From Candidatus Poribacteria bacterium (GTDB taxonomy: Bacteria > Poribacteria > WGA-4E > PCPOR2b), in contig JAJEAL010000134.1 of assembly GCA_022822785.1 (NCBI GenBank), positions 75,349-139,348 on the forward strand: DNA of 64,000 nucleotides, read 5' to 3'. The notes beneath the pieces are model-generated. The model did not search any database and was not told where the DNA came from. It worked only from the letters and a program-made list of their open reading frames with translations. The translations under genes were made by a program, and so were the position numbers. Below are positions 6,439 through 60,433 of this stretch, one piece after another. Numbering within the stretch: position 1 is the first letter of the stretch; each line of letters opens with the position of its first letter.

Positions 6439-6477
6439 TTTATGTGCTCCTTCTGATGCATATTCTTGAACAAGATT

Positions 6478-45067: not shown

Positions 45068-45265
45068 TTGCTTTTCGTTCCCTTTGCCTTAGAGTTGGAA
45101 GAGTGGAAGAAGGTCCCCTAATCTCCCATGCTTTCACCCATCTAGTATGTTTCTTGAGATATTATCACAAATGCCAATGGGAATCCATGAGAAACTTCGG
45201 AAGAAAAGCGGTTTTCCAGTGAACCTTTTCAGTTCGCCCAACACTAAAGGGGGTAGGAGGGCATT

Positions 45266-45805
45266 GTGGCAAGGGATATCGGAGAATATCACCCCCAGAT
45301 TGCACAGTTCGTTGATCAACTCTGTCGTGTCTACTATAAGCACAGTCAGCCTGAAGACCGCAGGGATATCAGCAGCGAGGTTGCCTTAATCGCGCATCAG
45401 AACCGCGAGCAGATTGCGGACGAATCCGAACGGGCATTTCTGGGATGGCTCCATCAAATTGCACAAAATGTGGTTCGGAACTGGTCACGCCGTGAAGGAA
45501 CTGCTGCCAGACGTGCGCTTGGCAGTCTTGACGACGAAAATTTTGGGACTGGGCAGATACTATCGGATGCACATACACCAGAGACAGATCTTCTCTTTCA
45601 AGAGAGAATGACAGTTGTTCGGAACGCAATCTCGGAATTGCCTTTGATTCATCAACAGGTGATTTGGTTATTCTACATTGAAGGACTTTCGGTGAAGGAG
45701 ATCGCAGGGAAGCTCGGCATTAGGAAAGGAACGGTTAAAAGCCGTCTATATCATGCAAGAGAACAACTCGCGACACGCTTGGCATCCTATTTTGCCGAGA
45801 GTTAA
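45266..45805 (+). CDS. ECF (sigma-70 family, group IV) RNA polymerase sigma factor
   Basis: 179 aa, region-4 HTH (IEGLSVKEIAGKLGIRKGTVKSRLYHAREQL) and region 2. Confidence 0.8.
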   Translation: MARDIGEYHPQIAQFVDQLCRVYYKHSQPEDRRDISSEVALIAHQNREQIADESERAFLGWLHQIAQNVVRNWSRREGTAARRALGSLDDENFGTGQILSDAHTPETDLLFQERMTVVRNAISELPLIHQQVIWLFYIEGLSVKEIAGKLGIRKGTVKSRLYHAREQLATRLASYFAES

Positions 45806-45825: not shown

Positions 45826-46173
45826 ATGAAGCATCAAGCACTACTTCTTGTCATCTCTTGTATGACACTCTCGATCGTTCTTGGTGGGTGCCATGTAGAA
45901 ATAAATGTAAAAGAAGAAGAAGAGGGTTTTTTGACAGTCAAGAACCGTTCAAATGTAACAATCACGAGTATTTTTATCGCTGCTGCTGAAGATGATTCTT
46001 GGGGGGCAGATCAACTCAAATCCGATATTCTACTACCTGGTGCTATAGTAACTTTTACTATTGAACCTGGCGCCTATGATGTCAGGGTTGTATCTGAACA
46101 TCATCGAGATTTCATATATGAAGCTGACATCTCGAGTGGGTGGACGACAACCGTGGCAATCAGATTCAGATAA
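45826..46173 (+). CDS. Small lipoprotein (lipobox LGGC)
   Basis: 115 aa, MKHQALLLVISCMTLSIVLGGC signal plus lipobox. Confidence 0.45.
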   Translation: MKHQALLLVISCMTLSIVLGGCHVEINVKEEEEGFLTVKNRSNVTITSIFIAAAEDDSWGADQLKSDILLPGAIVTFTIEPGAYDVRVVSEHHRDFIYEADISSGWTTTVAIRFR

Positions 46174-46422: not shown

Positions 46423-48921
46423 GTGAAACATCTCTTGTCGATATGGGAGGCGAATTTGTATCTGTTCTTCGCCCTTGTGATGCTCATTCTCGTAATGCCG
46501 CTCGCGGCTCTGTCCCAAACCGGGACGATTGAAGGCACTGTTTATGATGGGAACACCAACGCCCCGGTCGTCGGCGCAGATGTTCATATCCTCGGGACCG
46601 ATGAACGCCAAACAACCGATACGGAAGGGAAGTTCTGGTTTATAGAAATGGTTCCAGGCACCTACACCGTGTCAATTATTCACAAAATGTACGACACCCC
46701 TACAGAAACCGATGTAGAGGTCACCGCAGGTCATACCACTCAAGTAACGCTGTACCTAGGCGAGGTACTCATGCTAGAAGAGGTTATTGTTGAAGGGGAA
46801 CGCCTCCCGCCAACAATCAGTCGAAAGGACATCCGCGGGAGCGAATTGATACGTATCCCCGGCGTTGGTAATGATGCGCTCAAGGGGTTGACAACGCTTC
46901 CGGGCATCGGTGTTCCCAATGATTACTTCGGCATTCTCTATATCCGTGGAAGTGAGCCGGGATCTAACCTCTACTATTTTGACCGGACACCGCTTGGATA
47001 TCCGTTTCACTGGGGCGGTCTACTCTCGACTGTCAGCTCGGAAGTCATTGATAAAATTGATATCTATGCCGGTGGATACGGCGGGGAATTTGGGTTGGAT
47101 TCGCAGGCGGTGTTGGACATCCACTCACGTGATAGCATAGAAGAACGGATAAGCGGTAAATTTAACCTGAACATCCTCTACTCCGAAGGGCTGCTTGAGC
47201 GCAGACTTGGGGATGAGGGATATGTGTCTATTGCCGGACGACGGAGCTACATCGATCTCATTGTTGGACGGTTCATTGATGAACAGCAGTTTCCCTACTT
47301 TTCGGACTATCAACTCAAATTTGCCTATCCTCTTGGTGAAAGGCATTGCTTGACACTCAACAGCTTTGCTGCAACCGATCATTTCCACGTTGAGGAGGCG
47401 ACATCTGTAGAAGTTACAGAAGTGGAGAGCGGTCAGATGGAAGAAGAAACGCAGACATTTGAAGGTGCACGCGCCTCTGCTTTTTTCAAAAATGGGTTTA
47501 ACGCACAAGGCCTCCATCTCCATTCCAATTTCACTGAAAATCTTACCTCCCAGTTCTCGCTCACCCGTTCGTTCAATTTCCTCACTATCAACTTTGAAGC
47601 GCCCATCACGGAGTCGTATGAATTCGGTTCGGACGGTGAACTTGTGTCTGAAGTGGACTACGGTCACTACGACATAAATATCAAGGTTCCGGTCTATACG
47701 TTGAGAGAAGACGTGTCCTACCGATTAAATCTACGTCCTGACGATACTAGTCATCAAAGTGAGTCTACCGCATTGGAAACAGGATTCCTTCTTTCCTTCA
47801 GTCCTGCCAACAGTTTCGAGGACAGCAGGATTCCACAATTTGAAGAGCGCGATGACCGCGAAGAAACGGTTACCCTAGTTGTTGATGAAAATGGGGAGGC
47901 GGTCGAAGAAACTATCGTGGGTGGAGAAGGATTGGAGTTAGTTAGTATTGAAGAGAATCACTACGAATTCGGGCACGATTTCCGGCGCGCTGAGGGTTAC
48001 CTACAGGGGCGATATGACCCGTTGCCGTTTCTCTCTGCTGCGCTAGGGATTCGGTTGGATTATCTGGACGTGACAGGGCAGACCTCCATACAGCCGAGGG
48101 GGAGCTTAAGTTTTGCGTTGCCGGGCGGTTCTAACCTCCGGTTCGCGTATGGACATTATGAACAGAGTCCACAACCGCATCAGATACTGTCGGAGAACGG
48201 GAATTCTGCGTTGGAATCAAGCCTTGCGCGACACTATATCATGGAACTTGAAGGCGAACTTTCATCTCGCACGGAATTGAAGTTCGCTACTTACTACAAA
48301 GATATGCAGAAGTTGGTCACAGCGGATGAGATAGCGAATTATCTTAATCAGGGAACTGCGTATGTTAGCGGGGCAGAGGCGTTCCTGCGGCACCGTGTGC
48401 CAGATAAGTTCTTCGGCTGGATCTCGTATGCTTATACGCACGCTGAACGGCGCGAGAATCCGGGGGATTTCTACCGACCTTATTTTTTTGATAACACGAA
48501 TATTGTTAGCGTTGTTGCCAACTACAACTTCACGCCTAAGTTTGAGATTGGCGCGAAGTGGCAATATTTGAACGGAACCGCTGAAGTGCCAATCAGCTCC
48601 GTTGTTCTCGTTCAAGACCCGCTGACACGCGGGTTGAACCCGCTTTTGGCGGATATTGATGAATCCGTTACTGCTGAACTGACCCCGTACCATAAGTTGG
48701 ATCTCCGGGTGAGTTACAAATTCGACTTTATGGGCTTACGGATAGGTGCGTTTCTCGATATTCTGAACGTCTACAACCGGAAAAACAGTGTGAAATTTGT
48801 CTTTACCCCGGATGAGCTGCTTGAGGTTCAAGGTGAAGAGGTGGAAATCGAAGAGCCTGAAATCTTTGAGGCGCAGCAATTCCCGCGCATTCCCTATTTT
48901 GGTCTGACTGTTGAATTTTAA
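46423..48921 (+). CDS. TonB-dependent-receptor-like outer-membrane protein with an N-terminal CarboxypepD_reg domain
   Basis: 832 aa, signal peptide, GTIEGTVYDGNTNAPVVGADVHI, plug-like region, long beta-barrel-like C-terminus ending in Phe. Confidence 0.65.
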   Translation: MKHLLSIWEANLYLFFALVMLILVMPLAALSQTGTIEGTVYDGNTNAPVVGADVHILGTDERQTTDTEGKFWFIEMVPGTYTVSIIHKMYDTPTETDVEVTAGHTTQVTLYLGEVLMLEEVIVEGERLPPTISRKDIRGSELIRIPGVGNDALKGLTTLPGIGVPNDYFGILYIRGSEPGSNLYYFDRTPLGYPFHWGGLLSTVSSEVIDKIDIYAGGYGGEFGLDSQAVLDIHSRDSIEERISGKFNLNILYSEGLLERRLGDEGYVSIAGRRSYIDLIVGRFIDEQQFPYFSDYQLKFAYPLGERHCLTLNSFAATDHFHVEEATSVEVTEVESGQMEEETQTFEGARASAFFKNGFNAQGLHLHSNFTENLTSQFSLTRSFNFLTINFEAPITESYEFGSDGELVSEVDYGHYDINIKVPVYTLREDVSYRLNLRPDDTSHQSESTALETGFLLSFSPANSFEDSRIPQFEERDDREETVTLVVDENGEAVEETIVGGEGLELVSIEENHYEFGHDFRRAEGYLQGRYDPLPFLSAALGIRLDYLDVTGQTSIQPRGSLSFALPGGSNLRFAYGHYEQSPQPHQILSENGNSALESSLARHYIMELEGELSSRTELKFATYYKDMQKLVTADEIANYLNQGTAYVSGAEAFLRHRVPDKFFGWISYAYTHAERRENPGDFYRPYFFDNTNIVSVVANYNFTPKFEIGAKWQYLNGTAEVPISSVVLVQDPLTRGLNPLLADIDESVTAELTPYHKLDLRVSYKFDFMGLRIGAFLDILNVYNRKNSVKFVFTPDELLEVQGEEVEIEEPEIFEAQQFPRIPYFGLTVEF

Positions 48922-48974: not shown

Positions 48975-49646
48975 ATGAAATGTAATCAAGTACAGGAAAA
49001 GCTACTTCACTCTATTGACAAGGAGTTGTCTCCACAGATTCGAGAGCATCTGCTTGGCTGTAAAGAATGCGAGCAGAAATATCGAATCTTACAGACGACG
49101 CAGAAATCGCTAGAAGATTTTGGCCGTGCTGTTCGAGATGGTTCTATTTCAATGGAGGCACCGCCATTTCCGCCGGTTCGACGCCGTTCCTTCTGGATCG
49201 AAATACGCGATAGCCTGAAAACGCCGGTGCCGGTGTGGATACCATCTGCTATCGGTGTGGTTGGGTTGCTGCTGTTCGTTGTGTCGATTTTTTCGCCGCT
49301 CACGCCGTCGGTGGAATGGGGTACACAAAAAGGGAGTGAAAATGCAGGTCGCATCGCTCCACCACTCTCAGCGGAGGGGATGTTGGAGTTTCTCATTATG
49401 CCTGAACCAACGGATGCAGCACAACTCGCCGCCTCAATCGAAACAGTTGAAACGTTCCTGAAGATGCATCCCGACGATCTCGCGATGCATGCCAAACTGG
49501 TTGATCTGTATCAATCTCGACTCAAGTTGGGGGAACTGTCCGCCGGCGAGCGCGACGCCATGGCAGAGAAATTATCACTTGAACGACAACGTTTTTCAGC
49601 GCTGCTGGAAAATTTTACGAAAGGGGTAGAGAATGATTCAGAATAG
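48975..49646 (+). CDS. Anti-sigma factor (zf-HC2 putative zinc finger plus a single TM helix)
   Basis: 223 aa, CxxxxxxLLxxxDxELxxxxxxHLxxCxxC motif and one TM segment (VWIPSAIGVVGLLLFVVSIF). Confidence 0.7.
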   Translation: MKCNQVQEKLLHSIDKELSPQIREHLLGCKECEQKYRILQTTQKSLEDFGRAVRDGSISMEAPPFPPVRRRSFWIEIRDSLKTPVPVWIPSAIGVVGLLLFVVSIFSPLTPSVEWGTQKGSENAGRIAPPLSAEGMLEFLIMPEPTDAAQLAASIETVETFLKMHPDDLAMHAKLVDLYQSRLKLGELSAGERDAMAEKLSLERQRFSALLENFTKGVENDSE

Positions 49647-52600
49647 CTTGGGACAAACAGGTGGATGGAAGGAGGGAAAGATGGAAGGATGGAACCAATC
49701 TTCCATCTTCGCTTCCGCTTGCATCTTGATTCGATGGGCGCTTTCGGTCTGTAGTTTATTTGTAATTTTTTCACAGCCCATCCACGCTGAACAATATGCC
49801 ATCCTCGTGGGCGTTTGGGACTATGAAAATCCAAACTTACAGCTTGATGCGCCGCCAAACGATTTGAAGCTGATGGAAGCGGTGCTCTCGGCACAGGGTG
49901 TCACACAGGAACAGATGCACATCCTCCCCAATCCGAACAAGGCACAGATTCAACGTAAATTTCGGGAACTCAGCCGCCGCCTGACCCCTTCCGATAGCCT
50001 GCTTTTTTATTTTAGTGGGCATGGCACGCAGATTATTGACAAACTCGGAACTTTTCCGGGGGATGAAGCGAAAGGGCGATACCCGGACAGGAACGATGAA
50101 GCACTGTTGCCTGTGGACGCGGATCTGGCATCGCCCAAGACGTACCTGTTGGATGACGAACTCAATACCCTGCTCCAAGAACTGCCGACGCAGCAGGTCT
50201 CCTGCATTATTGACACATGCTACTCCGGCGACATACTTCGAGAGATTCGTCTGGGACGGCCCAAAGGCTCGCCGGTGGCGGATACCCCAACGGGGATCGC
50301 TCAACCTACCCAGATTGTAAGCCATACGGAGGACATCTTGGATGAGTCCGCCGATTTTGCGCTGCTGTTAGCGGCTTCTGCATACAATCAGGTCGTCCAT
50401 GAACTGCGCATCCCGATTGGCGAGACCTATCTACCTGTCAGTGCGATGACCTATTCTCTCTATCGAGGGGTGTTTGCGCGCTCGCAACCTCCTGCAGATC
50501 AGATGGACGCGAGACAATGGGACGGCAAACTGACGTACCGCCAAATTATTCAGCATATCCAGAACGACCATAGGCAGTGGAATCTAGCGTGGCAGCCTGT
50601 CCTTGAGGGACCAGGAAATCGCTTCAATGAGGTGTTTCTCCCTACTGACTTGATGCCGCAATTAAACGACACATTAACCCTGACAACAATAAAGGGGCAG
50701 TCGATATCGGTGAGTCGGCGGGCGTTGGCGCTTGCCGGTGGTGGCAATTTTCAGCTTGGCGCTGCGAGTGGTATCAACACCCGACATTGGGCGGTTGTTA
50801 TCGGCGTGGATGCGTATCCGTCACCCTTTCAGTCGCTCAAGTATGCTGCCGATGATGCCAAAGCGGTCGCGCAGGTGTTCCAAGATGCAGGCGCCAATGT
50901 GACGCTGATGACGCCTGATAGCCTGATTCAGCCGACGAAGGCGAATATAATTGAACAGCTCCAACGACACGCTCAACTTGAAGGGGTAGATCTGCTGACC
51001 GTTTATCTCTCTGGGCATGGCGAGGATGTCAATGGAACAGGTTACTTTCTACCGATGGATGTCGCCGATCCACTCGTGGACGGTGGACTGAGTCTTGAAA
51101 ATCTGTTTGCGATTCTCAACCGCGCAAACGCCAAGCATCGGTTCGTCATCGTTGATGCGTGTCGAGTGGCACCGAAGGCCCACTTCGTTGCGGCGCTGTC
51201 GCGCTATAGTGAGGAGAGCAATATCATCTTCACAGCGTGTGATAGCAACCAGTGGGCACCGGAAGTTCCACGCCTGAAACATGGACTGTTCACCTACTTC
51301 CTGCTCAAAGGGCTGCGCGGCGGCTCCCAGGACCGGGGCGCAGCAGGTGCCGATGGGACCGTCACGGTATTGGGGTTATTGGATTATGTGACACGCGGCA
51401 TTGAGGAGTGGCATTCCCACCTGTCCGAGGAGCAACACTATCCGCAGCAGATTACGCCCCGCGTCTTTTATAACGGGAAATATATCTCACTGTTGAACAA
51501 CCAAGGGATTGACCCGGCGGTGATCAACAATGAAGGGCTGCTTCCCCAAATTACCAATACGTTCCGACATCAACTCGCCCGTAGCTTGGAATTAGCACCT
51601 TCTTCAGAAAGAAATGATGGTGTTACACCGTCAACCCCAAAAGGTAACGATTTACATCTGCCTGTGACCATTTCACTAATTCCGTGGATTAGTAGTGTTG
51701 GCGTCCATGACTTCAACCGTAATATCACAACGAACCTGTCACTCAATATTATTGCAGGTTATCATACCAAGTTGGATGGCATCGAATTGGGTGGGGTTTT
51801 GAACATAAAGGGGCTTGAGGCGAAGGGCTTACAATTCGCTGGGGTTGGGAATATCGTCGGTGGGGATGTAGACGGTTTCCAAGTTTCAAGTGCACTTAAC
51901 GCTGTGGGCAGAAATATGGAGGGTTTCCAAACGTCGGGTGGAGTCAATGCTAGTGGTCGCGACGTTAACGGGTTCCAAGTCGCGGGTGGTGCCAACATCG
52001 CCGGCAAAAACGTGGAAGGTTTCCAAGCGTCAGGTGGAGTCAACGTTAGCGGTGGTAATCTCGATGGTTTCCAAGCAGCGGTGGGCGGCAATGTGGTTGG
52101 CAGAGATGTGGTCGGTGTCCAAGCCACAGTCGGGGCGAATCTGGGTGGGCGTGACCTTCGAGGTTTGCAGGCAGCTGGCGGCGCGAACTTCGTCGGTGGG
52201 AAAGTGGGAGGTCGAAGTCTACAGGCCGCGGTCGGACCCAACATCGCTGGGCGTTTAGAGGGGACACAGCTCAGCGTGTCTGCTAATATCGCGCTTGATC
52301 GGTATCAAGAGACAAATCTCTCGTACGCAGGTACACAGATTGGGATGGTCAATATTGCGCCCGGTGATATTGGGACACAGATTGGGCTTCTCAATATTGC
52401 TGGTCATGTGGGTACGTCGCAGGTGGGCCTGCTTAACGTCTCCGGACGGATGTCGGGCGTCCCGATCGGATTGATCAGTTTCGTCAAGGATAATCCACTA
52501 CACCTGCAACTGTGGAGTAGCGATACGGAGGTTGCAAACCTTGGGATTCGACTCGGTAGCCGACACGTTTACAGTCTGTTGATGATCGGCAGTTACCCAC

Positions 52601-52950
52601 ACGGCGATTTGGGCAGATGGTCGTCCGGGTTTGGTATCGGTGGGCACATTCCGCTCGGCAGGCAACTCTTTCTGAACGTTGACTTTATTACGCGCCAGGT
52701 GGGTTATACCGACGAATGGGCGGAGGAGACTTGGCGGTATGATGAACACACCGTCTTGAACAAACTGCGCCTTGGGTTTGGCTGGGAGCAGCACAAATGG
52801 TTCAGCTTCTTTGGTGGTGTTTCGCTCAACTTCCTCGTCTCGGATAGAGGGGACACTTCGGATTTTGGGTACGGATTTGATCATGTATACCGAAGGGATG
52901 ATACGACCGTTCGTATTTGGCCCGGGTTCTTTGCGGGGGTTCAGTTTTGA
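49633..52950 (+). CDS. Secreted tandem-caspase (peptidase C14 x2) protein with Gly-rich 16-aa repeats and a beta-barrel-like C-terminus
   Basis: His/Cys dyads FYFSGHG...DTCYSGD and VYLSGHG...VDACRV. Signal-like N-terminus. Repeats GFQxxGGxNxxGxxxx. C-terminal ...GFFAGVQF. Confidence 0.7.
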   Translation: MIQNSLGQTGGWKEGKMEGWNQSSIFASACILIRWALSVCSLFVIFSQPIHAEQYAILVGVWDYENPNLQLDAPPNDLKLMEAVLSAQGVTQEQMHILPNPNKAQIQRKFRELSRRLTPSDSLLFYFSGHGTQIIDKLGTFPGDEAKGRYPDRNDEALLPVDADLASPKTYLLDDELNTLLQELPTQQVSCIIDTCYSGDILREIRLGRPKGSPVADTPTGIAQPTQIVSHTEDILDESADFALLLAASAYNQVVHELRIPIGETYLPVSAMTYSLYRGVFARSQPPADQMDARQWDGKLTYRQIIQHIQNDHRQWNLAWQPVLEGPGNRFNEVFLPTDLMPQLNDTLTLTTIKGQSISVSRRALALAGGGNFQLGAASGINTRHWAVVIGVDAYPSPFQSLKYAADDAKAVAQVFQDAGANVTLMTPDSLIQPTKANIIEQLQRHAQLEGVDLLTVYLSGHGEDVNGTGYFLPMDVADPLVDGGLSLENLFAILNRANAKHRFVIVDACRVAPKAHFVAALSRYSEESNIIFTACDSNQWAPEVPRLKHGLFTYFLLKGLRGGSQDRGAAGADGTVTVLGLLDYVTRGIEEWHSHLSEEQHYPQQITPRVFYNGKYISLLNNQGIDPAVINNEGLLPQITNTFRHQLARSLELAPSSERNDGVTPSTPKGNDLHLPVTISLIPWISSVGVHDFNRNITTNLSLNIIAGYHTKLDGIELGGVLNIKGLEAKGLQFAGVGNIVGGDVDGFQVSSALNAVGRNMEGFQTSGGVNASGRDVNGFQVAGGANIAGKNVEGFQASGGVNVSGGNLDGFQAAVGGNVVGRDVVGVQATVGANLGGRDLRGLQAAGGANFVGGKVGGRSLQAAVGPNIAGRLEGTQLSVSANIALDRYQETNLSYAGTQIGMVNIAPGDIGTQIGLLNIAGHVGTSQVGLLNVSGRMSGVPIGLISFVKDNPLHLQLWSSDTEVANLGIRLGSRHVYSLLMIGSYPHGDLGRWSSGFGIGGHIPLGRQLFLNVDFITRQVGYTDEWAEETWRYDEHTVLNKLRLGFGWEQHKWFSFFGGVSLNFLVSDRGDTSDFGYGFDHVYRRDDTTVRIWPGFFAGVQF
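51870..52265. repeat. Intragenic ~48-bp tandem repeats (about 8 copies) encoding the Gly-rich 16-aa units
   Basis: Periodicity is visible in all frames. The antisense frame gives PPTxxP repeats. Confidence 0.6.
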
Positions 52951-53066: not shown

Positions 53067-56000
53067 TTAGACCAATGCTGCGCTGCAAATAATCTTTGGA
53101 ACGGTTTCATTTTCAAGTTGTGCGGCTTGCTGCCTCGATTCCCATTCCCGCATGTTGTGTTGACGATACAGGTCTCTCAGATTTTTCAGCAAGGCATCTC
53201 CGGTCACGCCGTTTCGACGCAGTAAATTGAGTTCTCGATTCACCGCGGTTGTAATTGTCCCACGAAACGCCTTTTCCAGTGTGCTGACTTGAGCGGAGAC
53301 ATCTTCATCACCACCCCCCGCCCCCCCGCCGCTAGCGGGGGGGAGAGAGGGGGTAATGATTTTCAATTCCCTTAACACATACCGTTGCCCCTGTGTCAGG
53401 GAGAGGGTGTGCTTGCGTTCCGATTGCAGGTCTTTGATTTCTTGGATGAATAACCGCTTGACCCCCATGATAGTCGCATTGTAATCCGTAGGCAACTCGC
53501 CCCCGGGAAGTTCCGGTTCGCACTCAATCTGATTGAGGATGCGGGAGATGTCTCTGGAGGTAATATCGCCTTTTTCATCCAAAAGGAACAGTTGTTGATA
53601 ACGTCCCGCTTGACAGAACAGATAGGTGCCTTCTGAGCCTTTTGGGATTGCTGTGCGAATCCCGTCTCTCAGATTCGCGATTCGCTCATACTCCTCCGGA
53701 TCCTCACGCCGCAGCTGTCTCAGAATTTCTTCGGCTTCGTTGAGATCGATTACCTTTTCATCTTCGCTTTCTTCAAACAGACTCAACTGCTCGCCTTCCT
53801 CCTCATAGATAGCATACATCGCCGCTTCGTTAAGTTGTTCGGAGTTATCGAGGATAGCTGCGTCCTCACCAATCGTATCGTGAATTTCTTGGATACGGCG
53901 TTGAAGGATTTGTTGCAATCCCAAATTTTGTTCGATGCCGGTTTCTGGCAGAAAGTTAAAGCCGTAAATCACATCGTGCTCGCTACCGATACGGTCGATA
54001 CGCCCGAATCGCTGGATCAGTCGCACAGGATTCCAGTGGAGATCGTAGTTAATGATTTTGTCGCCGTCCTGTAGGTTAAGTCCTTCCGCCAATACGTCGG
54101 TAGCGATAAGGGTGGACAGTTCCGATTCTCCACGCTGAAAACGGTACTCTGAATTTGCTTTCGGCGCAAAACGCCCCACGACCCGTTCTTTGCTTTTATC
54201 ACCGCTATAGATCACGTCAATATCAGTCCGTTTGCTGTTGGGGTTAATATTGTCAAACAGATAACGCGCTGTATCCGCATATTGGGTGAAGATTAGGCAC
54301 TTTCCCTCGTTAAGAGGCGGTTCTGCCAACCGTTTTTTGAGGATTTGCAGCTTCGCATCTTGCTCAGCGGTGATTGGTGATACAAGGTCTGACATCGCTC
54401 GTAGCAGCTGGAGGTCATGCTCAATATCCCCACGTAGCTCGTCGATTTTGAAATCTGCAATGTTGTATCGCGCTGAAGCTTGCCTCAACGCATCCATCAG
54501 GTCCTGTTCCTCTGCTTCGTTCGGTTCGTAGAGGAGGTCTTGTGCTTGGTCACCGGCGGGAACAATGCCTTCTTCTATAGCTTTGAGAAAGCGTTCGTGA
54601 ATCTTCAACAATCGACGCACTGATATCTTAAAGGCGTACACACTGGATTCAAATCGCTTGAACAGGAGTATCCGCATCAGCCCACGAAGGTTGACCCCTG
54701 AACGTTGCAGGTTGGTGTAGGGCTCCTGTTTCTGCTTTGACTTAATTACGTAATTCCAGAGCCCATAGCGGGCATAGGTTAGTGTGCTAACTGAAGAGGA
54801 AGGTGATCGGCTGCCTCGCGGTTTTCCCAGATGTTCCCGCAGCTGAAGGTAAAGCCCCTGATAGGTGTCTTCAATATTGTAGGAGATGGTTTCCAAGACA
54901 CGATTGGGGAAGAACTGCTTGTTTCCACCGACAACGACGTAAGCCTTTCGATGTCCGTCAAGATACTCCTGAAATTGGGACGGATCAACGGGTTGGTCGG
55001 TCTCTCCGTCGAAGCCGTACCAACGCAAGATATGATTGCGGGTGCGTCGGATGAGGATATTTCCTAACAGGTCGGGGAGATTTTTTTCTCGCTTCTCAAT
55101 CTGGCGAAAGTATGTCCGCAGGTTGGGGGGATCTATTGGTAAGTCAGTGATGTCTTCGGGGTGAAAGAGTTTAATCTGGTGGTATACGTCCCAAGCACTC
55201 TTGTTGCGTGGTGTCGCGGTGAGAAAACAGCATTGTCGCCCGGTGGCTAAAAAGGCCTGCAGCACTCTGTAACGTTGCGTGTCACGATGGCGGAAATTAT
55301 GACTCTCATCAACCAGTACAAAGTTCCGGTCGCGGTATATCACATCATCAAGAATTGTCGAAGTGAGATCGTACCCCTGTTCATCCGGTCGATCCTCACC
55401 TTCTCGTAAATGTCCCATAGAAAGGACGCGGGCGTTGAGTTGATAGACTTCGTTGTAGCGTTCCCACATTTGGACCAACGGGGCGGGGCAGACAATTAGT
55501 GGACGTGCATTTTCCGCCCATTCAAAATACTTGACAATTGCTGCACCGATGTAGCTTTTACCGAGACCGACGACATCTGCGACAAAGGCACCGCCGTAAT
55601 CCCGAATAATCTGCACCGCTTGCTGGACCGCAACTTTCTGAAAATCCGCTAACTGTTTGGTAATGTCCTCCTCCCAGAGTATGTCCCCCTCGTCGCCCCC
55701 TTCAAGTCGATCTTTAACCAACTCATAGAGTGTCTTCATGTAAATGTCGTAGGGGGACACGGGGGCGATTGCCCACGATGATTTCATTACCTCCATTAGG
55801 GATTCATCGAAATTTTGCGCTTCATCCCAGAGTTCGTCGAACCAGCGACATAGTTCGGCGTGGTTTGCGTTCCCTTGCACCACAACGTTTAGCTCGGTAT
55901 TGTGGCTTACACCGGCTAGTGTGAGGTTAGATGATCCGACAACGGCGATGCCTTTTTCATAGCGTCCTTCGTCGTTATAATCGAAGATGTAGGCTTTGGC

Positions 56001-56465
56001 GTGTAGTCTGCCTTTGGTGTAGACGCGGACCCGCAGCCGCTTTTCTTTTATCATCTCGACCAACGTTTTGATCAACAATTCACCGTCGTCGGTCTGATCC
56101 ATTAACTCCACAGACTCTATGATGTTCTCTGCGGTTTCTGCCCCCATCTGTTGACTTTCGATGCGTTTGGGGTAGGTCTGGGCTTCGGCGACATCGGCGA
56201 CCTGTTCTAACCTGGGATACCCTTCGGCGAGCTGCTCCAACGTCTCACGATTGGTGGTATTACCGATCAGCAAGCGGAGTTCTTTGACGCCCTGTAGTTC
56301 TTTCGCAATGCTTTGAAATCCCGACAGAAAAAAATACCCTACCGCGAATCTCGCTTTTTCGGTGGAGTCGAGGATGAGGTTGATGTGTTCTGCCAACTTT
56401 TCGCTTCGGTTGTCAATGATGTCGTGTTGCATTTCGGTTGCTTGCCCTAGTTTTTTGCCGTTCAA
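53067..56465 (-). CDS. PLD-family (HKD) nuclease fused to an SNF2-family SF2 helicase, 1132 aa
   Basis: HKD motif RLHAKAYIFD in the N-terminal domain. SNF2/DEXH motifs GLGKS, FVLVDESHNFR, LIATDVLAEGLNLQ, QRFGRIDRIGS. Confidence 0.75.
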   Translation of the reverse strand: MNGKKLGQATEMQHDIIDNRSEKLAEHINLILDSTEKARFAVGYFFLSGFQSIAKELQGVKELRLLIGNTTNRETLEQLAEGYPRLEQVADVAEAQTYPKRIESQQMGAETAENIIESVELMDQTDDGELLIKTLVEMIKEKRLRVRVYTKGRLHAKAYIFDYNDEGRYEKGIAVVGSSNLTLAGVSHNTELNVVVQGNANHAELCRWFDELWDEAQNFDESLMEVMKSSWAIAPVSPYDIYMKTLYELVKDRLEGGDEGDILWEEDITKQLADFQKVAVQQAVQIIRDYGGAFVADVVGLGKSYIGAAIVKYFEWAENARPLIVCPAPLVQMWERYNEVYQLNARVLSMGHLREGEDRPDEQGYDLTSTILDDVIYRDRNFVLVDESHNFRHRDTQRYRVLQAFLATGRQCCFLTATPRNKSAWDVYHQIKLFHPEDITDLPIDPPNLRTYFRQIEKREKNLPDLLGNILIRRTRNHILRWYGFDGETDQPVDPSQFQEYLDGHRKAYVVVGGNKQFFPNRVLETISYNIEDTYQGLYLQLREHLGKPRGSRSPSSSVSTLTYARYGLWNYVIKSKQKQEPYTNLQRSGVNLRGLMRILLFKRFESSVYAFKISVRRLLKIHERFLKAIEEGIVPAGDQAQDLLYEPNEAEEQDLMDALRQASARYNIADFKIDELRGDIEHDLQLLRAMSDLVSPITAEQDAKLQILKKRLAEPPLNEGKCLIFTQYADTARYLFDNINPNSKRTDIDVIYSGDKSKERVVGRFAPKANSEYRFQRGESELSTLIATDVLAEGLNLQDGDKIINYDLHWNPVRLIQRFGRIDRIGSEHDVIYGFNFLPETGIEQNLGLQQILQRRIQEIHDTIGEDAAILDNSEQLNEAAMYAIYEEEGEQLSLFEESEDEKVIDLNEAEEILRQLRREDPEEYERIANLRDGIRTAIPKGSEGTYLFCQAGRYQQLFLLDEKGDITSRDISRILNQIECEPELPGGELPTDYNATIMGVKRLFIQEIKDLQSERKHTLSLTQGQRYVLRELKIITPSLPPASGGGAGGGDEDVSAQVSTLEKAFRGTITTAVNRELNLLRRNGVTGDALLKNLRDLYRQHNMREWESRQQAAQLENETVPKIICSAALV

Positions 56466-56791
56466 TCCTGTGAGGATTCTGTTCGCAATGCTTGTCCAAT
56501 ATATTCGTCGTGTCGTTCGCTGAGATCTGTGGAATCACATTCCAATGTACCTGCCAAGGCTAGTAGTGGATCGGGGTTGCCAGACATCATTTTCCGTAAG
56601 TGACTGTCGTTTTCTACTATCCCGTCTAGGGCACTTTCGGCAGATAAATTTGTCTGCTCACGTTCAAACCGTTCAACCATAGCCGCAACCCATTGAGCGG
56701 TCATTTCTTCGGGAGTTTTCCCGAATTGTTGGGCGATATGTTTTAAGGAACGATACAAACTGTTCTCAAGTTTGATTGTTAATGTTTGCAT
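56462..56791 (-). CDS. Small putative ribbon-helix-helix (CopG/Arc-like) protein, translationally coupled (ATGA overlap) to the PLD-SNF2 gene
   Basis: 109 aa. N-terminal TLTIKLENSLYRSLKHIAQQFGKTPEEM is a strand-helix pattern typical of RHH. The assignment is tentative. Confidence 0.35.
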   Translation of the reverse strand: MQTLTIKLENSLYRSLKHIAQQFGKTPEEMTAQWVAAMVERFEREQTNLSAESALDGIVENDSHLRKMMSGNPDPLLALAGTLECDSTDLSERHDEYIGQALRTESSQD

Positions 56792-56824
56792 TGACTTGTA
56801 TCTCCTACGGATTGTTTTGATGGG

Positions 56825-56848
56825 CGGGGCAAGATGCCCCGCCTACGG
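56825..56848. repeat. 16-nt hairpin CGGGGCAAGATGCCCC, copy 2, extended as GCGGGGCAAGATGCCCCGCCTACGGG
   Basis: Identical core to 53017-53032, in the same orientation. Confidence 0.6.
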
Positions 56849-56860
56849 GATATGGTGTTA

Positions 56861-57331
56861 TTACTCCCTTGCCCAACCTATCAGTGCTTTATCGGGGGAG
56901 GCAATGTCGTTGATGGATGTATAATAGTAGCGTTCCCATCCGAGACGAGGCAGACCGGTGAAAATCATCAGGTTGAGTGGATATACATCACTATCGACAG
57001 CACGTCGAAAGTCGTCCCGAAATAGGAAGGTGGGCTTACCGAGTGCTATCGCTATTCCTAGCTCGATCATGACCCCTTCATCTGGGGGCACTCCGTTTAT
57101 GACCGCAAAAATTGCGTCCGCATCGAATACGTCCTGTTTGTCCTTCTGTCCAATTCGGTACGCCCAGTCGGAGGATAACCTGTCCTGGTTATTGCGTTCA
57201 AACGGCTCCCATACTTCTAACCCAACCGCTTCCAATGCCTTAACGAGAGCGGGTAAAGCGGTCTCTCGCAGTTGCTCTGAGAAGCCGTAGGGATTTGCCA
57301 GATATATTGTCTTTTTTTTTGTTACGGTCAT
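56861..57331 (-). CDS. Nucleoside 2-deoxyribosyltransferase / DNPH1 (Rcl)-fold protein
   Basis: 156 aa. IYLANPYGF...AVINGVPPDEGVMIELGIAIALGKPTF matches the NDT/DNPH1 D..G...E.G.A.A.GKP nucleophile motif. Confidence 0.6.
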   Translation of the reverse strand: MTVTKKKTIYLANPYGFSEQLRETALPALVKALEAVGLEVWEPFERNNQDRLSSDWAYRIGQKDKQDVFDADAIFAVINGVPPDEGVMIELGIAIALGKPTFLFRDDFRRAVDSDVYPLNLMIFTGLPRLGWERYYYTSINDIASPDKALIGWARE

Positions 57332-57336
57332 CGGTT

Positions 57337-58560
57337 CTACGATTCGCTCTCTTCTTGCAGAGATTTTGCCGCAAAAATTGTTAAGCGTAATTCTTCGCCG
57401 AACAGTTCGTATACAGGGATTTTGCCGCTAAGCTGCTCACTCTCGTTCAGGATGATACCAACCCCCTCACCCCGACGTTCTAAAAAGTGTCGCCGAACTA
57501 CCTGTGAACCCATATCATCGTCGAGCGTAATTTCCGAAAGTAGGCGAGCGAGGAGTTCGTTACGGGTTGCCTGATTATAGCGCAAATCGTCCACTGTTAA
57601 GGTATTTGCCAATGCACCCGGCGAATAGAGCTCTAGCCGGTCCGTGAACATAAATAGACGAATCTTCGATCCGGCTTTTGAATAATCTCTATGTACCACG
57701 GCGTTAACCACTGCCTCAAAAACCGCTCTCATACTGTATTGTGATCGCTCTATTCTGCCGATTTCCTTGCGAGCCGAGACTTGGTTATATCTCTCAACAA
57801 ATTTGAAGGCATCCACAATCTGTTGATCCAACGGTCCTCTAAAATCTTTACCATCAATCTGGTAGTTCGCATCCCTTTCCACGCCATTATAGAAAACAGC
57901 TTGAATGAAACTGTTGTAGAGGTAATCGTCGGGTCTATCATGACACATCAACAGACCAGCCACCGAGGCGCGATCCTCCTGCCCCTCTTTGACCAGCAAA
58001 CGCCTTTTCAATAGCAGGTCTTCTACCTTCTCACGTTCAGTCGCTTCTTCTGTGATAAATCGTTGATACAGTGTTTCCCTTAATATGTCTTTGTGAGTGC
58101 TCGGCACAAACTGTTCGTCAAAAGCGATGATACGTGCCTGTGAGCGGCTTTGTAGCAATCGCCCTAACTGCTCGGTGGTCATCCTGCTCTTGCTGCTGCC
58201 TTGACGAATGAAGTAACGGCCGGATGATTCGTGGACAAACAAGCTACGGGGCACCTCTATTTTTAACAGGTTTTTGTCATCAATCCGCAGTTTTTCGGTA
58301 AGGATGTGAACCATGGGGTCAATGTTATCCCGGCATACTTCAACCATTGTTCTCTCTATCCTGTCCAGATCTTGGCGATCCATACCGACAATTTCACTAT
58401 CGTCGTCAACACCGATCAGTATCACCCCACCGTTAGCGTTGGCAAAAGCAGCGACTTCCTCGGCAAGACTCTCTCTGTGAGGTAACTCTCTTTTGAATTC
58501 AATCGTTGAGTCTTTCCCTAGGTATATTTTTTCGGTGAGCTCGGTCAAACTGTCAAACAT
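57337..58560 (-). CDS. COG2865-type protein: AlbA_2 (Schlafen-like 'divergent AAA') domain plus C-terminal HATPase_c_4-like domain
   Basis: 407 aa, N-terminal ...KDSTIEFKRELPH...ANANGGVILIGVDD typical of AlbA_2. 5-bp gap to the NDT-like gene. Confidence 0.6.
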   Translation of the reverse strand: MFDSLTELTEKIYLGKDSTIEFKRELPHRESLAEEVAAFANANGGVILIGVDDDSEIVGMDRQDLDRIERTMVEVCRDNIDPMVHILTEKLRIDDKNLLKIEVPRSLFVHESSGRYFIRQGSSKSRMTTEQLGRLLQSRSQARIIAFDEQFVPSTHKDILRETLYQRFITEEATEREKVEDLLLKRRLLVKEGQEDRASVAGLLMCHDRPDDYLYNSFIQAVFYNGVERDANYQIDGKDFRGPLDQQIVDAFKFVERYNQVSARKEIGRIERSQYSMRAVFEAVVNAVVHRDYSKAGSKIRLFMFTDRLELYSPGALANTLTVDDLRYNQATRNELLARLLSEITLDDDMGSQVVRRHFLERRGEGVGIILNESEQLSGKIPVYELFGEELRLTIFAAKSLQEESES

Positions 58561-58676
58561 CGCTTATTCCTTAGATGAATATGCTATTGTCTGAATCGTG
58601 GATTGTCGTGGATTAACGCATGACACGGATTAAATCCCCGGTTTCCCATTGCTGGAAATTGTTACTTCCCTTGCGG

Positions 58677-58964
58677 TCAAGTGGGTTCTCCCACAGATAT
58701 GAGCGAAAGATCTTCAAGAAATGAACGTACATTTTCAATCTGCGAATCGTCAATATCCCAATCATACTCTTTAGCAACTTCTTGGATCTGTTCGGTTGTG
58801 GTTCTGCCTTGCCGGTTGACAATATAGTAGTGCGGACCGAAACCAAGATCAGTTTCCTCTAATACCGAAAGAAAATAAAGTTTCTTTTGGAGGGTGGTTC
58901 GCCCCCGGAGACTTTTATTGTTTTCGCTTCCAATGACAAGCAAAATCAGGTCTTGAATGTGCAT
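58677..58964 (-). CDS. Hypothetical 95-aa protein, weak resemblance to the Panacea (DUF4065) antitoxin-associated domain
   Basis: GRTTLQKKLYFLSV resembles the Panacea (T)KLQKLLYFAQ motif. Weak. Confidence 0.25.
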   Translation of the reverse strand: MHIQDLILLVIGSENNKSLRGRTTLQKKLYFLSVLEETDLGFGPHYYIVNRQGRTTTEQIQEVAKEYDWDIDDSQIENVRSFLEDLSLISVGEPT

Positions 58965-59102
58965 AGAACCTCTTTTCTTTTCGGGACAATGTCCTTTGAC
59001 TCCCTCTTGTCAGGAAGCTAGCAAAATATCTTACTTATTTTTACTTCATTTTGGCATTGATCATAGGAGGGCGATTTACTACGACGAGGTAGTCCAGCAG
59101 AT

Positions 59103-59516: not shown

Positions 59517-59612
59517 GGTTTTATCCTCCTGTGCCGCATTTTGAAATTTGGTGATGTAATCATAAGGTTAATTTTTTATTAAGGATTTTCTCTACAATGC
59601 AGATTTCCTCGC

Positions 59613-60281: not shown

Positions 60282-60433
60282 TTAGTTGTTGCTCCTTATC
60301 AATTTCCCAATTCCTATCAAAATATTTGCTTTCTGCATCCGTGCCCCCACAAGATAAACAACCCCTTAATGCATACCATCCCGTTCTCCTCGCGTGACGT
60401 TGAGGACGTTTGAAAATGAGCGTTTTACCACGA

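Follow-up and report, generated by a model that had tools for sequence, protein, structure and literature searches.

A double-caspase protein with a predicted beta-solenoid stalk and small outer-membrane barrel in an ECF sigma factor operon of Candidatus Poribacteria

The window analysed here is a 64,000-nucleotide stretch of contig JAJEAL010000134.1 from Candidatus Poribacteria, a sponge symbiont. Its plus strand carries an ECF sigma factor gene cluster with the following members, to the last of which a caspase/solenoid/barrel protein is assigned:

45220..45244, +, ECF-type promoter-like motif TGAACC-N14-AACAC(T), about 20 nt before the sigma start, its single occurrence in the window
45266..45805, +, ECF sigma factor gene, 179 aa (Pfam Sigma70_r2, r4_2 and Sigma70_ECF)
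45826..46173, +, small predicted lipoprotein ORF, 115 aa, lipobox LGGC (ORF list)
46423..48921, +, TonB-dependent-receptor-like outer-membrane protein, 832 aa (Pfam)
48975..49646, +, single-pass anti-sigma factor, 223 aa (motif, TM helix, weak models)
49633..52950, or from 49681 with M17, +, caspase/solenoid/barrel gene (ORF call, start-site check, database copy)

The sigma protein scored 71.3 bits against NCBIfam TIGR02937 (cutoff 42.9), and the promoter-like motif was found at the same position in 24 of 24 aligned sequences (the window and 23 Poribacteria loci), the flanks of which could not be aligned. A looser version of the pattern gave one match, just 5' of the sigma gene, in 25 loci. 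The lipoprotein ORF, for which profile searches returned no family match, is covered whole by 92-96% identical DNA in nine loci and, apart from its last few bases, in a tenth (L010), and is an optional operon member. The receptor-like protein combines CarboxypepD_reg, a weak Plug match and a 22-strand-type barrel ending in ...TVEF, with no STN domain detected by Pfam, and its gene lies between those of the sigma and anti-sigma factors in 23 of 27 Poribacteria species loci. The anti-sigma factor possesses an N-terminal HxxxCxxC zinc-binding motif, a TM helix at aa 87-105 (49233-49289) and, on the periplasmic side, a helical domain of about 115 aa in which an invariant K-G follows the TM helix at a short distance. 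Its H-L-x-x-C-x-x-C motif and TM segment recur in every full-length orthologue aligned, while the zf-HC2 and anti-sigma models matched the window protein weakly, under their curated cutoffs. The anti-sigma gene stands directly 5' of the caspase gene in all 27 species loci and the sigma gene is kept in 26, the exception being the contig-truncated L028. The caspase gene would be the last of an autoregulated ECF operon, in the order promoter, sigma factor, (lipoprotein), receptor-like protein, anti-sigma factor and caspase, and this context is the strongest clue to its function.

The caspase ORF encodes 1105 aa from M1. An alternative start, M17 at 49681, is preceded 6 nt upstream by the Shine-Dalgarno sequence AAGGAGG and yields 1089 aa; the database copy P0001 begins at this position and is 100% identical across the 1089 aa. 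The anti-sigma and caspase frames overlap by 14 nt when counted from M1 and are separated by a 34-nt gap when counted from M17. The ORF, Pfam, repeat and homologue analyses bore out the overall organization that an earlier note had described from the sequence, namely two C14 domains, Gly-rich (here Gly/Gln/Asn) repeats and a C-terminal domain ending in ...GVQF, and added a signal peptide to it:

49681..49788, +, Sec-type signal peptide, aa 17-52, predicted cleavage IHA/EQ (hydropathy, orthologue conservation)
49789..50622, +, caspase domain 1, metacaspase/orthocaspase-like, p20 and p10-like part (Pfam E 3.9e-17)
50782..51432, +, caspase domain 2 (Pfam E 3.5e-18)
51661..52500, +, beta-solenoid stalk, aa 677-956, about 15-16 rungs (AF2)
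51778..52308, +, eleven 16-residue repeats, aa 716-892, consensus GxQxxGGxNxxGxxxx (motif scan)
52501..52947, +, C-terminal 8-stranded outer-membrane beta-barrel, aa 957-1105, terminal strand TVRIWPGFFAGVQF (AF2, Foldseek, amphipathicity)

The signal peptide, whose presence the earlier note had left to be checked, was assigned by eye from a Sec-type h-region that is kept across homologues together with the following ...HA/EQ. The n-region of the window copy contains an insertion of ~20 aa relative to orthologues. Classical signal peptides are also found in relatives with a single caspase domain.

When scanned one at a time, both C14 domains passed the Pfam cutoff of 21.4 bits, and the His/Cys dyads that had been recognized in them lie in the motifs FSGHG (His130, codon 50020-50022) and DTCYSG (Cys196, 50218-50220) of domain 1 and LSGHG (His462, 51016-51018) and VDACRV (Cys510, 51160-51162) of domain 2. 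These four residues are invariant among 112 full-length homologues/orthologues, and the caspase domains are the best conserved regions of the protein, with a mean identity to the query among orthologues of 93% (domain 1) and 92% (domain 2), compared with 66% for the repeats. Judged by this dyad conservation, both domains appear to be catalytically intact. The two share just 29% identity over 83 aa, and the presence of two differing C14 domains within one chain is unusual. Among solved structures, the best sequence matches of domain 1 were yeast Yca1, Arabidopsis MC9/MC4 and T. brucei MCA2, in alignments running through SGHG and D(T/S)C(Y/H)SG; the domain aligns to the p20 of these and of cyanobacterial orthocaspases/metacaspases with E values of 1.6e-6 to 3.5e-3. 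By model comparison, the window protein's caspase domains have the orthocaspase/metacaspase fold, and comparison of the full-length model with caspase-7, caspase-3 and MALT1 gives TM-scores of about 0.7. The NCBIfam model caspase_w_EACC1 reached 114.5 bits against the whole protein, under its cutoff of 140, with its best stretch in domain 2. Domain 2 is also closer than domain 1 to 16 of 18 single-caspase relatives, and is the positional counterpart of the one caspase domain in the relatives from other phyla. To our knowledge, characterised orthocaspases and metacaspases are cytoplasmic, and none with a signal peptide and an outer-membrane anchor was found in the literature searched.

Past the caspase domains, the motif G.Q.{5}N occurs nine times where 0.39 occurrences are expected (2000 shuffles, maximum 3). 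Eight copies (aa 732-859) are spaced by exactly 16 residues, as the earlier note had counted, and degenerate copies at 716, 860 and 877 bring the array to 11 units, flanked by cap rungs (677-715) and by 'GTQIGxxNIA' rungs of 13-16 residues (900-956). A tandem repeat at the DNA level was looked for in the array and not found. Among orthologues the repeat region varies from 96 to 226 aa, mostly by 16-aa steps, and measures 144 aa (9 units) in 72 of 112. In two independent AF2 runs each repeat was folded into two strands with a pLDDT of about 90, the mean pLDDT for the C-terminal 446 aa (solenoid and barrel) being 86.7. Given the usual beta-solenoid rise of 4.8 Å per rung, the stalk would be roughly 7-8 nm long.

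The protein ends in ...WPGFFAGVQF, that is, with a final Phe after a WPGxxxGxQF strand. This terminus and an alternating strand pattern had led the earlier note to propose an outer-membrane-protein-like C-terminus of ~200 aa, to be checked by an AlphaFold model and barrel predictions; both features stand, its extent is reduced to about 150 aa, and AF2 folds this segment into a barrel. In an alignment of 44 family sequences, each of the eight predicted strands is hydrophobic on one face and polar on the other. The 50 PDB matches listed by Foldseek are all transmembrane beta-barrels, nearly all of them natural outer-membrane proteins. TM-scores were higher for 8-stranded barrels (OprF N-domain 0.60, OprH 0.55, NspA 0.54, OmpW 0.47, OmpX 0.45) than for larger ones (10-stranded OpcA 0.30, 12-stranded NanC 0.24, 12-stranded intimin 0.19), and no alpha-helical linker precedes the barrel in the AF2 models. 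In the family alignment, the putative periplasmic turns are constant in length (3, about 4 and 2 residues), whereas the loops on the putative outer side are long and differ in length between sequences (5-13 and 8-30 residues). In the canonical topology, where turns are short and constant and loops are long and variable, the stalk and caspases would lie in the periplasm, an orientation that we consider probable from the predicted fold, topology rules and the analogy with paralogues.

The signal peptide and the predicted models support export of the protein and its anchoring in the outer membrane by its own C-terminal barrel: after Sec export it would insert by an 8-stranded OmpA/OmpX-type barrel, and a rigid beta-solenoid would point inward from the barrel's periplasmic side, with the two caspase domains at its tip. 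Of the autotransporter-like caspase suggested earlier, the anchoring by its own barrel is supported (signal peptide, AF2, Foldseek), whereas export through that barrel is not, because the barrel is of the OmpA/OprF/OmpX type, lacks a linker helix and has periplasmic-side topology; with 8 strands and ~150 aa it fits 12-stranded barrels poorly. An 8-stranded barrel has no lumen able to hold a passenger. Classical autotransporters, too, have a beta-helical stalk and, after it, a barrel at the C-terminus. Type Va autotransporter proteases (SPATE-like, pertactin-type) have a like order of signal peptide, enzyme, beta-helical stalk and barrel, and their barrel, as in the window protein, ends in an aromatic residue. 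Their barrel, however, comprises 12 strands and ~250-300 aa with an alpha-helical linker in the pore, whereas the window protein has no such linker, a stalk built of 16-residue two-strand rungs and a passenger that is probably periplasmic.

The C-terminal module is shared with the LA_2272 family (NCBIfam NF047436 repeat, named after Leptospira interrogans LA_2272), in which 14-16-residue G-x-Q...N repeats are followed by a conserved ~150-aa domain ending in WPGxxxGxQ[FLI]. The solenoid-barrel module was found in 10,169 clusters at 50% identity (E<=1e-3). The repeat model itself matched the window protein weakly (17.2 bits, cutoff 25), and LA_2272-named homologues from Myxococcus/Pyxidicoccus matched its C-terminal 446 aa at E values of 1e-54 to 1e-60. 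Family members are mostly stand-alone proteins of 370-500 aa, to which the window protein adds two caspase domains; no sigma context was seen beside stand-alone modules in the loci examined. N-terminal partner domains were tallied in the 72 family representatives of more than 565 aa with the best scores, and were CarbopepD_reg_2 (40), STN (31), CarboxypepD_reg (13), FecR_C (13) and Peptidase_C14 (12). In TonB-dependent transducers, STN and CarboxypepD_reg form part of the N-terminal extension on the periplasmic side, and paralogues carry these domains, or an inner-membrane anchor, where the window protein has its caspases. STN-type paralogues follow the order sigma factor, FecR, family member and then a CarboxypepD_reg/Plug protein, the latter of ~800 aa and akin to the window's receptor-like protein, and thereby occupy the exact gene position of a TonB-dependent transducer. 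Members from Chitinophagales have an N-terminal TM helix, a ~290-aa linker and then the solenoid, and their gene starts 7 bp past the ECF sigma gene, in the anti-sigma position. Published work on the family was limited to in-silico predictions of LA_2272 as an outer-membrane or surface protein in Leptospira (PMC2387172, PMC5348505), and no published function was found.

The operon linkage, on which the earlier note had not drawn, extends across phyla. In all eight caspase-type contexts tabulated (the window, L002, L001, L030, L034, L035, L036 and L038), an ECF sigma gene is followed by that of a single-pass protein (anti-sigma) and then by the caspase gene. The single-caspase relatives (e.g. 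Hyalangium gracile P0196, 760 aa, and the Deltaproteobacteria MAG protein P0205) likewise combine signal peptide, C14, solenoid and barrel and match the window in gene order, but they have one caspase domain, another sigma/anti-sigma family with a DUF4384-like periplasmic domain, and no receptor-like gene inside the operon. Their anti-sigma and caspase frames overlap by 4 bp in all six loci. The Poribacteria pair, of zinc-finger type, appears unrelated to that of the other phyla (scores of 16-30 bits between the groups vs 119-300 bits within the other-phyla group), and the caspase association has therefore been retained, or established anew, with other partners.

The best explanation, to which we assign a rough probability of 0.55, is an outer-membrane-tethered periplasmic protease within an ECF module, possibly a site-1-type cleaver of the anti-sigma factor. 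In a signalling module that spans the envelope, the protein would work with the sigma/anti-sigma pair as the component based in the outer membrane; in the mechanism favoured here, its tethered caspase domains would cut the anti-sigma factor of the same operon in its periplasmic domain, which would start anti-sigma degradation and release the sigma factor. On balance, a functional role in ECF signalling seems likely, while the anti-sigma factor is a tentative candidate for the substrate. The invariant K-G shortly past the TM helix is common to both unrelated anti-sigma families and would fit the Arg/Lys specificity reported for orthocaspases (PMC6426788), a weak hint. Another weak hint of a caspase link comes from sub-threshold DUF4384 matches in four of five distinct anti-sigma factors of other phyla, as orthocaspases carry DUF4384 as an accessory domain (PMC7475262). 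Since the two anti-sigma families have unrelated periplasmic domains, any substrate site shared by them is speculative.

No such outer-membrane-tethered protease in an ECF module was described in the literature searched, and the closest parallels are partial. In FecA/FecR/FecI cell-surface signalling, an outer-membrane protein likewise offers an N-terminal periplasmic domain to a single-pass anti-sigma factor encoded beside an ECF sigma factor; STN-bearing paralogues of the module take the transducer position, and the window operon includes a TonB-dependent-receptor-like protein. There, however, the periplasmic domain is an STN and not a protease pair, the anti-sigma factor is FecR and not of zinc-finger type, and the barrel is a 22-strand transporter and not a small anchor. 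DegS/RseA, and Prc acting on FecR-like proteins, tie a periplasmic protease to the inactivation of a single-pass anti-sigma factor, as proposed here. In Myxococcus xanthus, the anti-sigma factor DdvA has an extracytoplasmic caspase-fold CHAT domain proposed to inactivate it, placing such a protease outside the cytoplasm in an ECF pathway (PMC6061681). The window protease differs in being of family C14, a separate polypeptide and anchored in the outer rather than the inner membrane, and its cleavage of the anti-sigma factor is a proposal.

Gene linkage fits both a regulator and a target of the sigma factor, and the caspase could be the sigma factor's output. It would then be an outer-membrane-anchored periplasmic effector protease of envelope stress, either clearing damaged or foreign proteins from the periplasm or carrying out self-destruction of the envelope, and the anti-sigma factor would be under other control. 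Its dyads are intact and it would be co-transcribed 3' of an autoregulated ECF promoter; ECF regulons typically contain their own operon, and the authors of the ECF classification emphasize that regulators and targets cannot be told apart by context (PMC7826278). We nevertheless consider this somewhat unlikely, as STN-type paralogues hold the sensor position beside FecR, Chitinophagales paralogues hold that of the anti-sigma factor itself, the anti-sigma and caspase frames overlap by 4 bp in single-caspase loci and, in the window, overlap by 14 nt from M1 or lie 34 nt apart from M17, and the linkage persists across two unrelated sigma/anti-sigma families.

Less likely still is a surface-displayed protease, with caspases and stalk outside the cell digesting sponge or environmental proteins. 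It could get there as an autotransporter-like passenger or via the neighbouring 22-strand receptor-like protein, and might perhaps feed that receptor, as the type Va-like layout, the receptor-like gene in the operon and the surface/outer-membrane predictions for LA_2272 would allow; caspase domains are also reported among the enriched 'eukaryote-like' domains of sponge-symbiont Poribacteria (PMC7081726). Against this, the linker-free ~150-aa barrel scores 0.45-0.60 with 8-stranded but 0.19-0.24 with 12-stranded barrels, the loop/turn pattern puts the N-terminus in the periplasm, and paralogues bear an STN or inner-membrane anchor at that end. The architecture and operon also occur in free-living Myxococcota such as Hyalangium and are thus not host-specific, and several loci either lack the receptor-like gene or have it beyond the sigma/anti-sigma/caspase block. 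Membership of the adjacent anti-phage defence island, as a cell-death effector like the gasdermin-activating or CHAT proteases, is highly improbable. Matches to HKD+Snf2, ThsB, TIR, AbiTii and Schlafen-like models do lie immediately downstream, and PADLOC's generic 'caspase' model was matched at 3.5e-34, but only over the caspase core (profile positions 2-130 of 453). The defence caspases we know of are cytoplasmic, unlike the exported and membrane-anchored protein predicted here. A helicase gene follows the caspase gene in 8 of 27 Poribacteria loci, far from the constancy of its anti-sigma and sigma neighbours (27 and 26), and the defence genes are encoded on the opposite strand, the distal part of the island being lower in G+C.

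The caspase gene of the window closes a set of forward-strand features that includes genes for a sigma factor of the extracytoplasmic function (ECF) type and its presumed anti-sigma factor, and we consider it reasonably probable (about 0.6) that its product acts as the outer-membrane arm of a sigma/anti-sigma signalling module:

45220-45244, + strand, promoter-like motif of the ECF type, TGAACC-N14-AACAC(T), preceding the sigma gene by ~20 nt
45266-45805, + strand, ECF sigma gene
45826-46173, + strand, small lipoprotein ORF (115 aa) with lipoprotein signal …VLGG↓C
46423-48921, + strand, CarboxypepD_reg/Plug/TonB-dependent-receptor-like gene
48975-49646, + strand, single-pass anti-sigma gene with conserved HxxxCxxC
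49633-52950, + strand, caspase gene (1105 aa)

The full-length caspase architecture was recovered in 27 species-level genomes, 26 of them titled Candidatus Poribacteria and one an unclassified metagenome bin, with proteins 55-84% identical to the query, and more than 120 protein clusters in a large database matched the caspase protein. The genome scan used this single protein as its query, and distant gene contexts were taken from individual contigs. The anti-sigma gene stands immediately upstream of the caspase gene in 27 of 27 Poribacteria species loci, the sigma gene is kept in all of them but the contig-truncated L028, and the receptor-like gene lies between the two in 23 of the 27. An ECF sigma factor with a single-pass anti-sigma accompanies the caspase in every caspase-type context tabulated (8/8), the arrangement being common to the 27 Poribacteria loci. 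Pfam detected neither STN nor FecR in the window proteins; both are present in paralogous systems. An AAC-containing -35 element is typical of ECF promoters, and the motif upstream of the sigma gene has one; it occurs once in the window, and all 24 aligned upstream regions preserve it within flanking DNA that is itself unalignable. In 25 loci, a looser pattern gave a single match, immediately upstream of the sigma gene. The lipoprotein ORF matched no family. Nine Poribacteria loci carry it in DNA that is 92-96% identical over the whole ORF and a tenth carries nearly all of it, while the remaining loci have a gap of just 42-147 bp at its position. One Poribacteria genome apparently holds two sigma/anti-sigma/caspase blocks ~800 kb apart on contig CAXXCS010000002.1 (loci L023 and L026), and in both the sigma and anti-sigma genes are direct neighbours that no receptor-like gene separates.

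The caspase protein would enter the envelope through a predicted signal peptide whose beginning is ambiguous. Orthologues start with M-A-Q-N-S-L-G-S-T-I-R-W..., which corresponds to M1 of the window protein, and since their N-termini align with M1, we infer that the window gene carries an insertion of ~20 aa (GGWKEGKMEGWNQSSIFASAC; within 49633-49731) in the n-region that all orthologues lack. The insertion creates an internal start, M17 at 49681, preceded by the strong ribosome-binding site AAGGAGG, and therefore leaves two possible start codons; M17 is the start in the identical database entry P0001. With either start, the hydrophobic core is unchanged, and so is the ...HA↓EQ cleavage site that homologues conserve. 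A lipoprotein anchor was considered and rejected, as the 'LSVC' sequence falls within the h-region with Val at -1 and the homologues retain the ...HA↓EQ site.

Pfam matched Peptidase_C14 twice in the whole protein (E 2.1e-35), and the two domains scanned singly scored 63.1 and 66.6 bits, both passing the cutoff of 21.4. The His/Cys dyads that the earlier note had read from the sequence are indeed present in both domains (domain 1, H130/C196; domain 2, H462/C510) and are invariant among 112 full-length homologues. Domain 1 aligns with Yca1 at the dyad motifs and is nearest by sequence to the metacaspases Yca1, AtMC9/4 and TbMCA2. In a full-length AlphaFold2 model (mean pLDDT 71.3), matches to caspase-7, caspase-3 and MALT1 reached target-normalised TM-scores of ~0.65-0.73 at probability 1.00, where the aligned part could be either domain, and the predicted structure thus has the caspase-hemoglobinase fold. 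By similarity to metacaspases only, the window caspases would be expected to prefer Arg or Lys at P1. The two domains share only 29% identity over 83 aa, so that the protein joins distinct C14 lineages and did not arise by a recent duplication; tandem duplication of one domain was rejected on this low identity, together with the findings that solved metacaspases match domain 1 alone and that single-caspase relatives are slightly closer to domain 2 than to domain 1 in 16 of 18 cases. Mean identity to the query is 92-93% in the caspase domains, 85% in the C-terminal barrel and 66% in the 16-residue repeats; dyad invariance, these regional identities and the variation in repeat length together indicate that both proteases are strongly constrained and that the stalk length is adjustable.

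The stalk begins after the second caspase domain. The motif G.Q.{5}N occurs nine times in the protein, against 0.39 expected and a maximum of three in 2000 shuffles, and the eight 16-residue repeats reported earlier are borne out at exact 16-residue spacing over aa 732-859. The array extends to 11 units with three degenerate copies (aa 716-892), and shorter rungs of 13-16 residues continue to aa 956. Tandem Repeats Finder detected no DNA-level tandem repeat in 51600-52500, on which ground a recent expansion of the repeat DNA was dismissed. Among orthologues, the repeat region varies from 6 to 14 units and from 96 to 226 aa, mostly in 16-aa steps, with 144 aa (9 units) the commonest length and 176 aa (11 units) in the window protein. 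Two short strands per repeat are predicted by AlphaFold2, so the repeats would form a beta-solenoid; at 4.8 Å per rung, the modeled stalk would measure ~7-8 nm. This length and the varying copy number imply that the number of repeats could set how far the stalk reaches across the periplasm.

The C-terminal 446 aa, aligned with 43 homologues (alignment A1), were modeled with AlphaFold2 at a mean pLDDT of 86.7, with 262 residues at 90 or above, and the full-length model reproduced both solenoid and barrel. Following the solenoid, the model contains eight long antiparallel strands:

aa 957-963, 968-975, 979-988, 994-1007, 1012-1026, 1040-1054, 1057-1070 and 1091-1104, barrel strands predicted by AlphaFold2

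All 50 of the Foldseek PDB matches listed were transmembrane beta-barrels, nearly all of them natural outer-membrane proteins, with 4rlc, 8qxp, 2lhf, 1p4t and 2mnh at the top. In the family alignment, each of the eight predicted strands is hydrophobic on one face and polar on the other, the putative periplasmic turns are short and fixed (3, ~4 and 2 residues), and the putative outward loops are long and differ in length (5-13 and 8-30 residues). The C-terminal domain is thus predicted to be a closed barrel of eight antiparallel strands with its hydrophobic surface towards the lipid; its turn and loop pattern is that of a canonical outer-membrane protein and would place both chain ends in the periplasm. 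The barrel-like C-terminus proposed from the sequence is supported by the AlphaFold2 model. The protein ends in ...WPGFFAGVQF (...TVRIWPGFFAGVQF), and C-termini in the family are mostly F, L or I, with a short extra tail in a few members. The barrel had no Pfam match, and a profile search of PDB sequences returned nothing below E 0.09, so the assignment holds at the fold level only.

TM-scores of the barrel model, normalised by target
OprF N-domain, 8-stranded, 0.60
OprH, 8-stranded, 0.55
NspA, 8-stranded, 0.54
OmpW, 8-stranded, 0.47
OmpX, 8-stranded, 0.45
OpcA, 10-stranded, 0.30
NanC, 12-stranded, 0.24
intimin, 12-stranded, 0.19

The same comparison speaks against the autotransporter-like barrel suggested in the earlier note. 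Type Va autotransporters possess a 12-stranded translocator barrel with an alpha-helical linker in its lumen, whereas the model of the window protein has eight strands in ~150 aa, scores 0.45-0.60 against 8-stranded barrels versus 0.19-0.24 against the 12-stranded NanC and intimin, and shows only strands between solenoid and barrel by DSSP in both AlphaFold2 models. The Pfam Autotransporter model did not match the caspase protein. With the small 8-stranded barrels of the OmpA-N, OmpX, OprF-N or OmpW type, it shares the predicted fold and a C-terminal beta-signal, but not sequence homology.

The solenoid-barrel module extends far beyond caspases. The module alone matched 549 proteins in a word-indexed search, and a profile search recovered 10,169 clusters at 50% identity with E<=1e-3 (4,253 at E<=1e-30); among the matches listed, the module lies at the C-terminus or a few residues from it. 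Some members are called 'LA_2272 family surface repeat-containing protein' (Myxococcus and Pyxidicoccus) and others 'caspase family protein' (Hyalangium and a Deltaproteobacteria MAG); the caspase-module architecture is already in the databases under generic names. The Myxococcus and Pyxidicoccus proteins match the window module at E 5.6e-60 and 2.0e-54 over 98% of the query; the short LA_2272 repeat model scored 17.2 bits against the caspase protein, below its cutoff of 25. In the Hyalangium gracile caspase-module protein (P0196), aa 534-616 gave a weak, below-cutoff match (1e-7) to the NCBIfam 'VC2662 family protein', and on this basis short Vibrio proteins may share the module's repeat.

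N-terminal domains among the 72 best-scoring module-family representatives longer than 565 aa
CarbopepD_reg_2, 40/72
STN, 31/72
CarboxypepD_reg, 13/72
FecR_C, 13/72
Peptidase_C14, 12/72

STN with CarboxypepD_reg forms the periplasmic N-terminal extension of TonB-dependent transducers that contacts FecR-type anti-sigma factors. In STN-type loci, the order is sigma, FecR and family member, followed directly or one gene on by a ~800-aa CarboxypepD_reg/Plug protein, and these family members thus occupy the position of the TonB-dependent transducer. A Chitinophagales subfamily (~700 aa; P0222, P0230 and P0254) consists of ~47 residues, one TM helix, a ~290-aa linker rich in Thr, Asn and Gln, and then the solenoid; a gene of this type (4458-7118 of locus L039) begins 7 bp after an ECF sigma gene, without a separate anti-sigma gene. 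These members look like single polypeptides anchored in the inner and outer membranes, at the anti-sigma position. Stand-alone modules occur without sigma context.

Outside Poribacteria, we compared six single-caspase loci (Hyalangium, a second long contig on which the caspase locus is flanked by the same genes, a Deltaproteobacteria MAG and three further metagenome assemblies), all of which encode an ECF sigma, a 258-345-aa single-pass protein and the caspase, in this order and with 4-bp overlaps. Their sigmas are mutually homologous (119-300 bits), and the middle, anti-sigma-like proteins share 29-43% identity over nearly their full length (83% in the closest pair). Scans of these middle proteins gave weak matches below curated cutoffs, to anti-sigma models at the N-terminus in 3 of 4 and to Pfam DUF4384 in the periplasmic part in 4 of 5. 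The sigma/anti-sigma pair is unrelated to that of Poribacteria (16-30 bits). Module members 'armed' at the N-terminus are thus linked across phyla to ECF sigma/anti-sigma pairs, the caspase type with two unrelated pairs.

The 8-strand barrel, the pattern of its turns and loops, and the paralogues, whose partners are periplasmic or anchored in the inner membrane, together argue that the stalk and caspases probably face the periplasm. Display of the caspases on the cell surface would retain the autotransporter analogy and a role in symbiosis, but it is improbable given the size of the barrel, the missing linker helix, the N-terminal partners of the paralogues and the fact that free-living Myxococcota carry the operon too. 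The caspase could also be a target of the sigma factor rather than its regulator, which we regard as unlikely, though less so than surface display. For the preferred reading, in which the caspase protein serves the signalling module as its outer-membrane arm, a candidate mechanism is offered by analogy with regulated anti-sigma proteolysis and with DdvA, which has been proposed to be inactivated by its own CHAT domain, a caspase-fold domain outside the cytoplasm (PMC6061681). Here, at somewhat below even odds, the caspases might cleave the periplasmic domain of the anti-sigma, aa 106-223 in the window protein. A K-G shortly after the TM helix, roughly 10-45 residues from its periplasmic end, is invariant in both unrelated anti-sigma families, as W-G-x-x-K-G in 15 of 15 Poribacteria anti-sigmas (the type encoded at 48975-49646) and as R-x-K-G in 6 of 6 of the other type (L001, L030, L034, L035, L036 and L038). 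Orthocaspases are reported to cut after basic residues (PMC6426788), and the invariant K-G is suggestive of a possible protease site or may be a coincidence. More doubtfully still, the LA_2272-type family as a whole may constitute unrecognised outer-membrane arms that control ECF sigmas, the caspase subfamily directly cleaving its co-encoded anti-sigma. Such arms would reach across the periplasm over a distance set by the stalk repeat number, the K-G just outside the inner membrane would be a candidate cleavage site, and the Chitinophagales members would span both membranes as single polypeptides.

Bacterial caspase homologues are usually viewed as proteases that serve cell death or defence in the cytoplasm. 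The caspase domains of Poribacteria have so far just been included in counts of 'eukaryote-like' host-interaction domains (PMC7081726). Our results point to a different role, that of an exported caspase-fold protease under the outer membrane, genetically tied to ECF sigma/anti-sigma pairs in several phyla. Literature searches returned no description of a caspase that is exported and anchored in the outer membrane or of a caspase-ECF sigma link, no paper connecting ECF sigma factors with Peptidase_C14, and, for LA_2272, in-silico outer-membrane predictions in Leptospira only. ECF54 was considered as this system and set aside, as it has CHAT in its context but is actinobacterial and lacks an anti-sigma. 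We regard the window system as a variation on the orthocaspases and on two known kinds of regulation, cell-surface signalling and the regulated proteolysis of anti-sigmas. Should the protease act on the anti-sigma, it would represent a new route for signals across the Gram-negative envelope, caspase-driven sigma-factor activation would be a new form of cell-surface signalling, and a module family of more than 10,000 sequence clusters, so far without a known role, would gain its first function. The hypothesis is testable in cultured Myxococcota such as Hyalangium gracile, which have the simpler one-caspase version, and the conserved TGAACC-N14-AACACT promoter provides the operon's own reporter.

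A defence-island-like run of genes lies downstream of the caspase gene:

53067-63881, - strand, defence-island-like gene run

It encodes an HKD+Snf2 helicase (PADLOC C3a139, 2.6e-87), a ThsB-type TIR protein (4.1e-81), a second TIR protein, AbiTii (1.8e-39), a nucleoside 2-deoxyribosyltransferase, a Schlafen AlbA_2/HATPase_c_4 protein and, at the edge of the window, a methyltransferase-like ORF. That the caspase belongs to this island is hardly credible and was ruled out on synteny, since no more than 8 of the 27 Poribacteria loci have the helicase downstream of the caspase. Over 58-64 kb, the G+C content drops to 0.39-0.43, which suggests acquired DNA. On the other side of the operon, the window encodes a protein of an unusual 'eukaryote-like' surface-protein type:

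37060-41304, - strand, 1414-aa protein with a PSCyt1 planctomycete-type cytochrome c, many leucine-rich repeats, cohesin, dockerin and a FlgD Ig-like domain
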